Shown here one piece after another: positions 3,153 through 3,456 of a stretch of 23,943 nt of DNA. The stretch lies in IMG/VR virus record IMGVR_UViG_3300005077_000747, positions 1-23,943 of that record, one strand, 5' to 3'. A model generated the notes under the pieces. That model had not been told where the DNA came from, ran no database searches, and was given only the letters and a program-made list of their open reading frames with translations. The DNA is from a virus. The position numbers and the translations under genes were made by a program. Within the stretch, counting starts at the first letter, position 1, and every line of letters starts with the position of its first letter.

Positions 3153-3300
3153 CTTGACAGGAGGATGTTGGATGGAGTCATTTTTCTCTACCATTGAGCT
3201 ACGCACGCCATATAAAGTTGGGGCGTGCGACGGGATTCGAACCCGCAACCTTTTGTTCCCAGACAAACGAAGTAACTCCAAAACCTTACTGCCTGTCAAA
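3153..3300 (-). ncRNA. Y-RNA-like (YrlA-type) RNA 1. It has a permuted tRNA-like module enclosed by a long-range helix.
   Basis: Minus-sense order is T-arm GCGGG-UUCGAAU-CCCGU (3230-3246), then an 8-bp acceptor-like hairpin CGCACGCC/GGCGUGCG with a 12-nt loop that begins CCA, then UA, then a D-arm GCUC-AAUGGUA-GAGA. The flanks can pair as UUGACAGG (3292-3299) with CCUGUCAA (3154-3161) and as UGGAGU with ACUCCA. Confidence 0.55.
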
Positions 3301-3310
3301 TTTTCTTAAT

Positions 3311-3456
3311 CCGAGTGAGAAGGATAATTAGGAGGAAAGGCGGAAGAGAACGTTAGTGCTCTACCCACTGAGCTACAGGAGCAAGGAGCTCCTGACAGGA
3401 TTCGAACCTGTGACCACTCGATTGACATTCGAAGTAACTCTCCCAATTACTTCCTA
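3311..3456 (-). ncRNA. Y-RNA-like (YrlA-type) RNA 2, a second permuted tRNA-like module.
   Basis: Minus-sense order is T-arm ACAGG-UUCGAAU-CCUGU (3395-3411), a 7-bp acceptor-like hairpin CAGGAGC-UCCUU-GCUCCUG, then UA and a perfect D-arm GCUC-AGUGGGUA-GAGC. Flanking helix UCGAGUGG (3414-3421) pairs with UCACUCGG (3311-3318). A GAAGUAA/UUACUUC hairpin sits at 3431-3454. Confidence 0.55.

Follow-up and report, generated by a model that had tools for sequence, protein, structure and literature searches.

Y RNAs and their protein partner Ro60 are conserved from bacteria to humans, and both phage Y RNAs and loci with several Y RNAs are already known. In Mycobacterium smegmatis, a single precursor encoded upstream of rsr, the gene of the Ro60 ortholog Rsr, gives rise to YrlA and YrlB, and Rsr binds both; YrlA of this species, which has a 7-bp acceptor-like stem, is cleaved by RNase P and acquires CCA in vivo (PMC4201824). 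The Deinococcus radiodurans Yrn2-tRNA-Yrn1 locus is polycistronic, and orthologues of Salmonella YrlB are confined to S. enterica (PMC4201824). In Thermus phage phiLo, Ro60 (PDB 9KOP, 9L5Y) binds two upstream Y-like RNAs (Yrl1 and Yrl2) as well as host PNPase (PMC12135203). The analysis described here concerns a 740-nt gap upstream of a phage rsr gene, located in a 23,943-nt stretch of viral DNA (IMG/VR record IMGVR_UViG_3300005077_000747, positions 1 to 23,943; "the window"). Very probably, this gap is made up of four Y RNA genes in tandem, all on the strand of rsr (units A to D, Table 1); judged by their sequences, they appear to belong, as divergent members, to the bacterial Y RNAs already known to partner Ro60.

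The units were compared with the YrlA family (RF02553), found in Salmonella Typhimurium, M. smegmatis and mycobacteriophages (Chen et al. 2014, PMC4201824; crystal structure in bioRxiv 10.1101/312249), the RNAs of which are stabilised through binding by Rsr and contain psi55 and dihydrouridine. Like members of that family, which lie within ~4 kb of a Ro60 ortholog on the same strand, they are positioned beside rsr and on its strand (2923-3465, minus). Units A and B display the YrlA order of elements: a stem, YUAY, a V region, a T-arm, a closed acceptor-like hairpin, UA, a D-arm, and the stem again. As in YrlA, the terminal stem is long, the T-arm and D-arm stem-loops are near-invariant and UA precedes the D stem; the acceptor-like hairpin has 7 bp in unit A, the same number as in M. 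smegmatis YrlA, and 8 bp in unit B. The YUAY sequence that begins the V region is UUAC except in unit C, which has AUAC, and shows little or no variation across the clade. Both T-loops are UUCGAAU, both D-loops (AGUGGGUA and AAUGGUA) contain G18G19, and the Levitt combination 15:48, which covaries in YrlA, is G:C in unit A and A:U in unit B; one or the other of these two combinations was found in 29 of 36 tRNA-like units. The sequence GGTTCGAATCC occurs three times in the window, as opposed to 0.03 expected, the third copy being in a tRNA-Met gene. A preliminary description made from the sequence had recognized in units A and B two permuted tRNA-like modules of the YrlA type, upstream of rsr and sharing its strand, and this was borne out by the Rfam YrlA model, by a covariance model free of window sequence, and by covariation; the T-arms, the closed hairpins of 8 and 7 bp, the UA and the D-arms were all found on the minus strand where it had put them.

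The Rfam YrlA model matched unit A over its full model length (3338-3445, 41.8 bits, E=1e-7) and unit B over the T, acceptor and D parts (3185-3250, 28.6 bits, E=7e-4). For a comparison with closer relatives, homologous rsr loci were gathered from viral (20), metagenomic (64) and metagenome-assembled genome (MAG; 8) sequences; individual loci are designated below by L and a number. A covariance model (R1) built from a MAFFT alignment of 15 tRNA-like units, with unit C absent from the seed, was run on both strands of the window and 84 homologous loci (407 kb). It yielded 157 matches, all on the rsr strand, including units A (118 bits), C (43.1 bits) and D (38.8 bits). To avoid circularity, a second model (R2) was built from 20 homologous units, none of them from the window, and used to search both strands of the entire 23.9-kb window with filters off. 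Exactly four significant matches were obtained, corresponding to the four units (Table 1), all in the gap and on the rsr strand; the next match, to the T-arm of tRNA-Met, had an E-value of 0.11. The same strand and position specificity was seen with the pattern AGTAA-N6-10-GNTACTTCG (in RNA, AGUAA-N6-10-G-(U/A)UACUUCG), which is present four times in the gap on the rsr strand as opposed to none expected, with each copy in the 5' arm of a long hairpin.

The stem, T, acceptor and D helices covary across ~100 units from phage contigs and bacterial MAGs. RNAalifold, applied to the MAFFT alignment of the 15 tRNA-like units, detected compensatory changes in 22 of 28 pairs, so that the covariation for which the preliminary description had looked to homologous loci is present. 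It likewise predicted the stem helices P1, P1b and P2, which were 92% paired over 102 distinct units, with compensatory changes in all 16 pairs. In the alignment of these 102 units, where pairing is favoured because the alignment was fitted to the model structure, 93.4% of the cells were paired compared to 62.3% in shuffles, and the covariation score was 0.485 compared to at most 0.087 when partners were slid by 1-3 columns. The acceptor-like helix covaries in homologues and has 6-8 bp in 23 of 28 units. As tRNA genes are frequent in phage genomes, and one is found 30 nt past rsr in the window, it could be argued that the elements are decaying tRNA remnants or chance matches devoid of function. 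However, compensatory changes keep every helix across ~100 distinct units, and the T-acceptor-D order with its flanking stem is conserved in phage contigs and MAGs the Rsr proteins of which are 26-53% identical; covariation effectively refutes this explanation, and we attach next to no probability to it.

All four units are built on one frame. Its outer part consists of P1 (4-13 bp), a one-base 5' bulge and a 2-bp helix (AG:CU, covarying with GG:CC and GC:GC); its inner part comprises an asymmetric internal loop (5' YRA, here UAA; U-rich on the 3' side), P2 (7-10 bp) and the junction UUAC (units A, B and D) or AUAC (unit C), with a small hairpin beginning at or just after the next UUC. Units of the tRNA-like type continue with NGGUC, T-arm, acceptor-like hairpin, UA and D-arm, while hairpin-type units close with a short A-rich stretch. 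Units A and B therefore extend into a circularly permuted tRNA carried on the Y stem, and units C and D, which lie between module B and rsr and were missed by the preliminary description, close directly, like YrlB. Unit C has a hairpin of 4 bp and a 7-nt loop (UUCG-AUGCUAA-CGGA) and no T, acceptor or D arms; the fold of unit D has a z-score of -3.8, none of 200 shuffles being as stable. Both fit the short hairpin Y RNA type (YrlB/Yrn2) by architecture and stem frame.

In carrying tandem Y RNAs upstream of rsr, and in its mixture of tRNA-like and shorter hairpin Y RNAs, the window resembles the M. smegmatis YrlA-YrlB and D. radiodurans Yrn loci, and the latter also in a tRNA gene that may lie in the same unit. 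It differs from both in having four units (up to at least nine in relatives), one regular frame and more than one fully tRNA-like unit. Phage phiLo, which has a Ro60 with Y-like RNAs directly upstream, offers a functional model in its experimentally demonstrated complex of Ro60, Y RNA and host PNPase, although its protein is only ~26% identical to the window Rsr; in addition, it was a stem-bulge-stem with a CGAA motif that served to define the phiLo Yrls, and descriptions of them mention no tRNA-like domain, unlike units A and B. The preliminary description had considered two tandem copies unusual, a view that did not hold: in this Rsr clade such tandems of tRNA-like units are found repeatedly, and arrays have up to at least nine units.

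The position of the array also raises the question of a role in cis. Unit D ends 27 nt ahead of the likely rsr start, all units share the rsr strand, and no minus-strand intrinsic terminator was found between array and rsr, as might be anticipated if the units acted mainly as a structured 5' leader of rsr, either an autoregulatory Rsr platform or a stability element. Against this, units are located downstream of rsr in L033, L041, L049 and L073, arrays contain up to at least nine units, the characterised precedents yield stable RNAs processed from precursors (PMC4201824), and a leader does not need the full set of conserved tRNA tertiary contacts. We consider a mainly cis-acting leader improbable, and tandem genes for separate Y RNAs remain our preferred reading.

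The published Rsr motif, GNCGAAN0-1G near the 5' end, is the proposed Rsr contact (PMC4201824). At the corresponding position the window units have the bulge, the 2-bp helix and a sequence of the form RGYRA, which is AGUAA in all four of them. The clade consensus at this position is AGUGA/AGCGA, and variants among relatives include GGCAA/AGCAA (L005), GCCGG/GCUGG with 3' AUGC (L017) and GCUGA with 3' UUUGC (L065). The 5-nt motif was identical in 66% of the unit pairs from within a genome and in 21% of those from different genomes, a result reached by none of 2000 shuffles; P1 and P2 were merely ~50% identical within a genome. The motif is thus genome-specific, and its sharing within genomes suggests that in each genome it co-evolves with a single protein reader, for which Rsr is the simplest candidate. 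The sequence UUACUUCG(A) was also considered as an equivalent of the CGAA motif and was discarded: its CG is not conserved (UUACUUC is followed by A, U or C in many units), its UUAC aligns with the YUAY of YrlA and its UUC opens the V hairpin, the RGYRA loop being the positional equivalent.

Several observations weigh against this assignment, in addition to the above bias of a model-fitted alignment towards pairing. Both Rfam YrlA scores are below the gathering score of 69, so that the cmsearch check proposed in the preliminary description did match the two modules, yet not at that level. The literal GNCGAAN0-1G is not present in the 5' stem of any of the four units, and the sole CGAA among them is in the V stem of unit A (UUCGAAUG). 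The sharing of the stem motif within a genome could partly stem from recent duplication or gene conversion. The TTGCCT-N17-TATAAT promoter noted earlier upstream of the array is indeed present, but it is a consensus match only, and such sites are no commoner in the region (five) than in shuffles (5.3 expected). The leader (3466-3600) and the spacer between units B and C (3080-3155) are unstructured, with a stability no greater than that of shuffles, and neither PNPase, RtcB nor another obvious effector is encoded in the window. In two literal respects, the gathering score and the replacement of GNCGAAN0-1G by a bulge, 2 bp and RGYRA, the units depart from YrlA; in all architectural respects they agree with it.

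The preliminary description had further proposed a complementary helix flanking each tRNA-like core. The octamers it had named are complementary in both modules, UUGACAGG/CCUGUCAA in module B and, with two G.U pairs, UCGAGUGG (3414-3421)/UCACUCGG (3311-3318) in module A. The first pair forms the outer part of P1. The second is not supported as a stem, the closing stem of module A being formed instead by AAGGAAAAUUAGG/CCUAAUUAUCCUU, AG:CU and GGGAGAG/CUCUUCC. In UCGAGUGG, UCGAG forms the 3' half of the V hairpin and covaries with the 5' strand (UUCGA/UCGAG in unit A; UUCGG/CCGAG, UUCGC/GCGAG and UUCAU/AUGAA elsewhere), and UGG belongs to the NGGUC linker; UCACUCGG is outside unit A and has no counterpart in the closest relative, L005, the V region of which is nearly identical.

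An ordinary tRNA gene is a contiguous cloverleaf with open acceptor ends that tRNA finders detect, and none of this applies to the units: neither ARAGORN nor Rfam at gathering score called an ordinary, unpermuted tRNA in 2912-3655. In permuted tRNA genes, such as those of Cyanidioschyzon merolae, and in two-piece permuted tmRNA, the 3' part of the tRNA fold is likewise encoded before the 5' part, and the product is processed to the normal form with free acceptor ends. In the window units, in contrast, the acceptor is closed, and the break, at which the predicted Rsr-binding stem leaves the core, separates the D arm from the anticodon-like arm.

Units A and B might nevertheless be permuted or split genes for chargeable tRNAs, for example tRNA-Asp(GUC), that mature by RNase P cleavage and CCA formation at the acceptor loop, as with the RNase P cut and CCA reported for M. 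smegmatis YrlA (PMC4201824). In both units the acceptor-like stem allows a reading of exactly 7 bp, a discriminator and CC (CGCACGC-C-CCA in unit B, CAGGAGC-U-CC in unit A), and ARAGORN draws the rejoined halves of unit A as a complete tRNA-Asp(GUC) cloverleaf. That program is permissive, however; it called 19 of 28 rejoined units, but also 48% of the controls with a shuffled V region, and because of this its result was given no statistical weight and was replaced by register-specific pair counts. The encoded CCA of unit B may be due to chance, since it is unique among the 28 units and 0.4 are expected by chance. In addition, a Y stem of ~45 nt would remain between positions 26 and 27, the anticodon-like loop of unit B has 6 nt, and in most relatives the acceptor hairpin has a stem of 5-10 bp closed by a tight tetraloop of 3-5 nt. 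It is therefore very improbable that chargeable tRNAs are produced.

The V region does bear a resemblance to an anticodon arm. The stretch from UUAC to the T stem is most commonly 22 nt long (16 of 36 units), which is the length of tRNA positions 27-48. In these 16 V regions, each of the pairs between positions 27-31 and 39-43 is formed in 13-15 units, 12 units have U33 and all have R37, and the final five bases are NGGUC. When V regions of 21-23 nt were considered (n=18), at least four of the five pairs were formed in the anticodon register in 61%, compared to 11% of shuffles. Unit A (UUCGA-AUGUCAA-UCGAG-UGGUC) fits tRNA positions 27-48 exactly, with GUC in place of the anticodon, and a partial match of 20.5 bits to the Rfam tRNA model runs over it and the T arm, the V region being placed as anticodon arm plus variable loop; in unit B the hairpin has 5 bp and a 6-nt loop and is offset by four bases. 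The "anticodons" differ among the units of arrays (UUU, GUG, CAG, CAU and GAU in relatives), and U33-G34-U35 in the loop of unit A is the recognition triplet of tRNA-guanine transglycosylase (TGT). Unit A and many relatives are unlike Salmonella YrlA in having a V hairpin of 5 bp with a 7-nt loop followed by NGGUC, and in occurring as at least two tRNA-like units per locus. Salmonella YrlA has been said to be an RNA that "lacks the anticodon loop", its Y stem replacing the anticodon stem, and has been modelled as derived from a dimeric tRNA transcript; the retention of the anticodon arm, variable loop, T arm and 3' acceptor strand of the "first tRNA" fits such an origin.

Tentatively, and with the odds clearly against it, the tRNA-like Y RNAs of the clade could be complete permuted tRNAs with an anticodon-arm mimic, the Rsr-binding stem being inserted between positions 26 and 27. 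If this is true, the arrays would present Rsr-tethered mimics of particular tRNAs to readers of the anticodon loop, the candidates being host anticodon nucleases or modification enzymes such as TGT, the triplet of which is present in unit A of a phage with 7-deazaguanine-pathway genes; the mimics would serve as decoys, sensors or repair platforms in infection, and the anticodon arm would be a living trace of the proposed dimeric tRNA origin of YrlA. An additional scenario is that the tRNA-like units are largely Rsr-independent decoys or sponges for host tRNA-targeting enzymes (anticodon nucleases, modification enzymes), linked to rsr by operon organisation only. The anticodon-like features and the varied "anticodons" are consistent with this, as are the significant matches in L104, L110, L137, L157 and L163, where tblastn with the window Rsr finds no Rsr in the fetched stretch; rsr at these five loci is either further away or too divergent, or else units occur without it. 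A pure decoy, though, would have no need for the Y stem and genome-specific motif found in every unit, including those with no tRNA-like parts, and rsr is directly downstream at nine of 14 newly found loci, even at 26-35% identity. Independence from Rsr is scarcely to be expected in view of these data.

Under the preferred reading of an array of Rsr partners, a mechanism can be proposed by analogy with M. smegmatis YrlA/YrlB, D. radiodurans Yrn2-tRNA-Yrn1 and phiLo Ro60. The array would be transcribed together with rsr, perhaps from the TTGCCT-N17-TATAAT sequence, and the transcript cut into RNAs of ~70-150 nt. The phage Rsr ring would bind each of these at the bulged stem around AGUAA, and the tRNA-like domains would fold into an L shape and be read by host tRNA-handling proteins or by an exoribonuclease such as PNPase. 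In this manner the RNA could tether or gate Rsr during infection; on the same analogy, transcription, processing, Rsr binding, an effector and a benefit to the phage are all inferred. The tRNA-Met gene past rsr may share the transcription unit of the array and rsr, as tRNA-Asp does in the D. radiodurans Yrn locus.

The same frame is repeated in tandem at homologous rsr loci, with six units in L002 and four in L005, and at least two full tRNA-like units are present in L002, L034, L048, L064, L086, L087 and L089. L087 and L089 (Sericytochromatia MAGs) and L086 (a Verrucomicrobiia MAG) belong to the same Rsr clade and have arrays of four to at least nine units, the largest being from Sericytochromatia; one of these MAG contigs is 3.5 Mb long, and the L087 array extends past the fetched edge. 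The system thus reaches beyond phages, unless these regions are prophages. IMG/VR was also scanned with a 14-base gapped pattern, which gave mostly chance matches; 80 of the loci listed were examined with R2, and 14 of them contained real units, so that at least 14 further loci are known. At the nine of these with rsr directly downstream, Rsr is in some cases only 26-35% identical to the window protein, indicating that the subfamily extends well past the immediate clade.

The locus and its ~100 relatives constitute a divergent subfamily which the Rfam model does not collect, mostly from uncultured phages, huge phages included, along with some bacterial MAGs. In the literature, which was searched incompletely, no description was found of tandem arrays of tRNA-like Y RNAs, of a genome-specific stem motif or of an anticodon-arm mimic. 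These three features, the arrays being regular and made up of two to at least nine genes and the mimic present in many units, provide experimental handles on what Rsr recognizes, on the tRNA-binding factors that are recruited and on the reason for the presence of the system in phages; the genome-specific variant of the motif predicts co-evolving Rsr-RNA contacts. For the window itself, four non-coding RNA genes are securely annotated in a previously unannotated gap.

Table 1. Features of the array and of its surroundings (all on the minus strand; positions are those of the window)
Feature	Position	Sequence or structure	Remarks
Y RNA unit A (YrlA-type)	3320..3465		R2 match 3325-3460, 111.7 bits, E=1.5e-27; Rfam YrlA match
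Unit A, P1	3453-3465 / 3320-3332	AAGGAAAAUUAGG / CCUAAUUAUCCUU	One A.A mismatch
Unit A, bulge	3452	A
Unit A, P1b	3450-3451 : 3333-3334	AG:CU
Unit A, loop motif	3447-3451	Within AGUAA
Unit A, P2	3438-3444 / 3342-3348	GGGAGAG / CUCUUCC
Unit A, junction	3434-3437	UUAC
Unit A, V region	3412..3433	Hairpin UUCGA-AUGUCAA-UCGAG (3417-3433) + UGGUC (3412-3416)	Hairpin of 5 bp, 7-nt loop
Unit A, tRNA-like core	3358..3411	T-arm, acceptor-like hairpin, U8A9, D-arm
Unit A, T-arm	3395-3411	ACAGG-UUCGAAU-CCUGU
Unit A, acceptor-like hairpin	3376-3394	CAGGAGC/GCUCCUG	7 bp, loop UCCUU
Unit A, UA + D-arm	3358-3375	GCUC-AGUGGGUA-GAGC
Y RNA unit B (YrlA-type)	3154..3299		R2 match 3154-3299, 85.1 bits, E=1.5e-20; Rfam YrlA match over T, acceptor and D parts
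Unit B, P1	3292-3299 / 3154-3161	UUGACAGG / CCUGUCAA
Unit B, bulge	3291	C
Unit B, loop motif	3286-3290	AGUAA
Unit B, P2 end	3276-3279 / 3174-3177	GGAG / CUCC
Unit B, junction	3272-3275	UUAC
Unit B, V hairpin	3252-3267	UUUGU-CUGGGA-ACAAA
Unit B, T-arm	3230-3246	GCGGG-UUCGAAU-CCCGU
Unit B, acceptor-like hairpin	3202-3229	CGCACGCC/GGCGUGCG	8 bp; reads 7 bp + C73 + CCA
Unit B, UA + D-arm	3185-3201	GCUC-AAUGGUA-GAGA	Pair 10:25 is a G.A mismatch
Y RNA unit C (short hairpin type, YrlB-like)	3008..3078	P1/AGUAA/P2/AUAC frame	R2 match 3008-3078, 40.5 bits, E=7.6e-9; R1 match; fold z=-2.7
Y RNA unit D (short hairpin type)	2923..2991	GGAACAGG-A-AG-UAA...GAGGG-UUAC-UUCGG...CCCUC...CUUUCUCCUGUUCC	R2 match 2923-2991, 35.8 bits, E=1.4e-7
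rsr (Ro60 ortholog)	1442..2896	MARFSTKK...	Pfam TROVE + vWA_Ro60; likely start ATG 2896
tRNA-Met(CAU)	1341..1412		ARAGORN; Rfam tRNA 31.6 bits (low); pair 1:72 mismatched
Candidate sigma-70 promoter	3603..3631	TTGCCT-N17-TATAAT, TG extension	10/12 consensus matches; ~140 nt upstream of unit A

The rsr gene had been placed downstream of the modules in the preliminary description, and the open reading frame (ORF) found there on the same strand (1442-2911, 489 residues) encodes a protein with a TROVE domain (Pfam, E=9e-23) and a Ro60-type vWA domain. Although the mechanical ORF begins at 2911 (MGRVRM...), the second ATG (2896) is the likely start, as GGAGG (2903-2907) precedes it by 7 nt and homologues align from residue 6 onward. 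The best relative of solved structure is the Ro60 of phage phiLo (E=2e-19). The nearest Rsr proteins, from uncultured viral contigs and metagenomes, are 53% identical, and that of a 635-kb huge-phage record is 46% identical; a megablast of 12 kb against phage records found no DNA-level relative. A look-up of exact protein matches likewise returned none, and a 27-mer taken from unit A had no exact match in IMG/VR. With the closest Rsr at only 53% identity, near relatives for a fine-scale comparison are absent.

The -10 box of the candidate promoter is overlapped by a 9-bp inverted repeat, GTATGCTAT...ATAGCATAC (3589-3614), which, read on the plus strand, resembles a terminator, with a hairpin and a T-run after it. 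It may act as an operator or in terminating antisense transcription. Two mechanical ORFs that overlap unit B, at 3085-3309 (plus) and 3111-3299 (minus), were treated as spurious.

What remains of the window makes up a phage module for replication and nucleotide metabolism, in which every gene is on the rsr strand: a DNA polymerase, SbcCD, a PDDEXK nuclease, a thymidylate-synthase-like protein, FolE2, QueD and several transferases. FolE2, a GTP cyclohydrolase (ORF 5122-6519, minus), has a LAGLIDADG_2-like stretch at its N-terminus, and a QueD/PTPS gene is found further up (20060-20455, minus); together they indicate a 7-deazaguanine pathway in the phage. Within the same module, at 10175-16592 (minus), are a gene for a papain-family peptidase and a block of sulfotransferase, glycosyltransferase and methyltransferase genes, an unusual auxiliary cargo unrelated to the Y RNAs.

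Two kinds of insertion were seen in units of other loci. In jumbo-phage relatives (L006, 3648-3880, plus; also L007-L015, L038, L039 and L042) the frame of the Y stem is retained in the second unit (AUAGCGA ... AUACUUCG) and surrounds a conserved insert of ~170 nt which is not tRNA-like and matches no Rfam family; it may be a different effector module. In L064 (542-764, plus) and in units of L056 and L089, insertions of ~100 nt are found in the loop of the acceptor-like hairpin.

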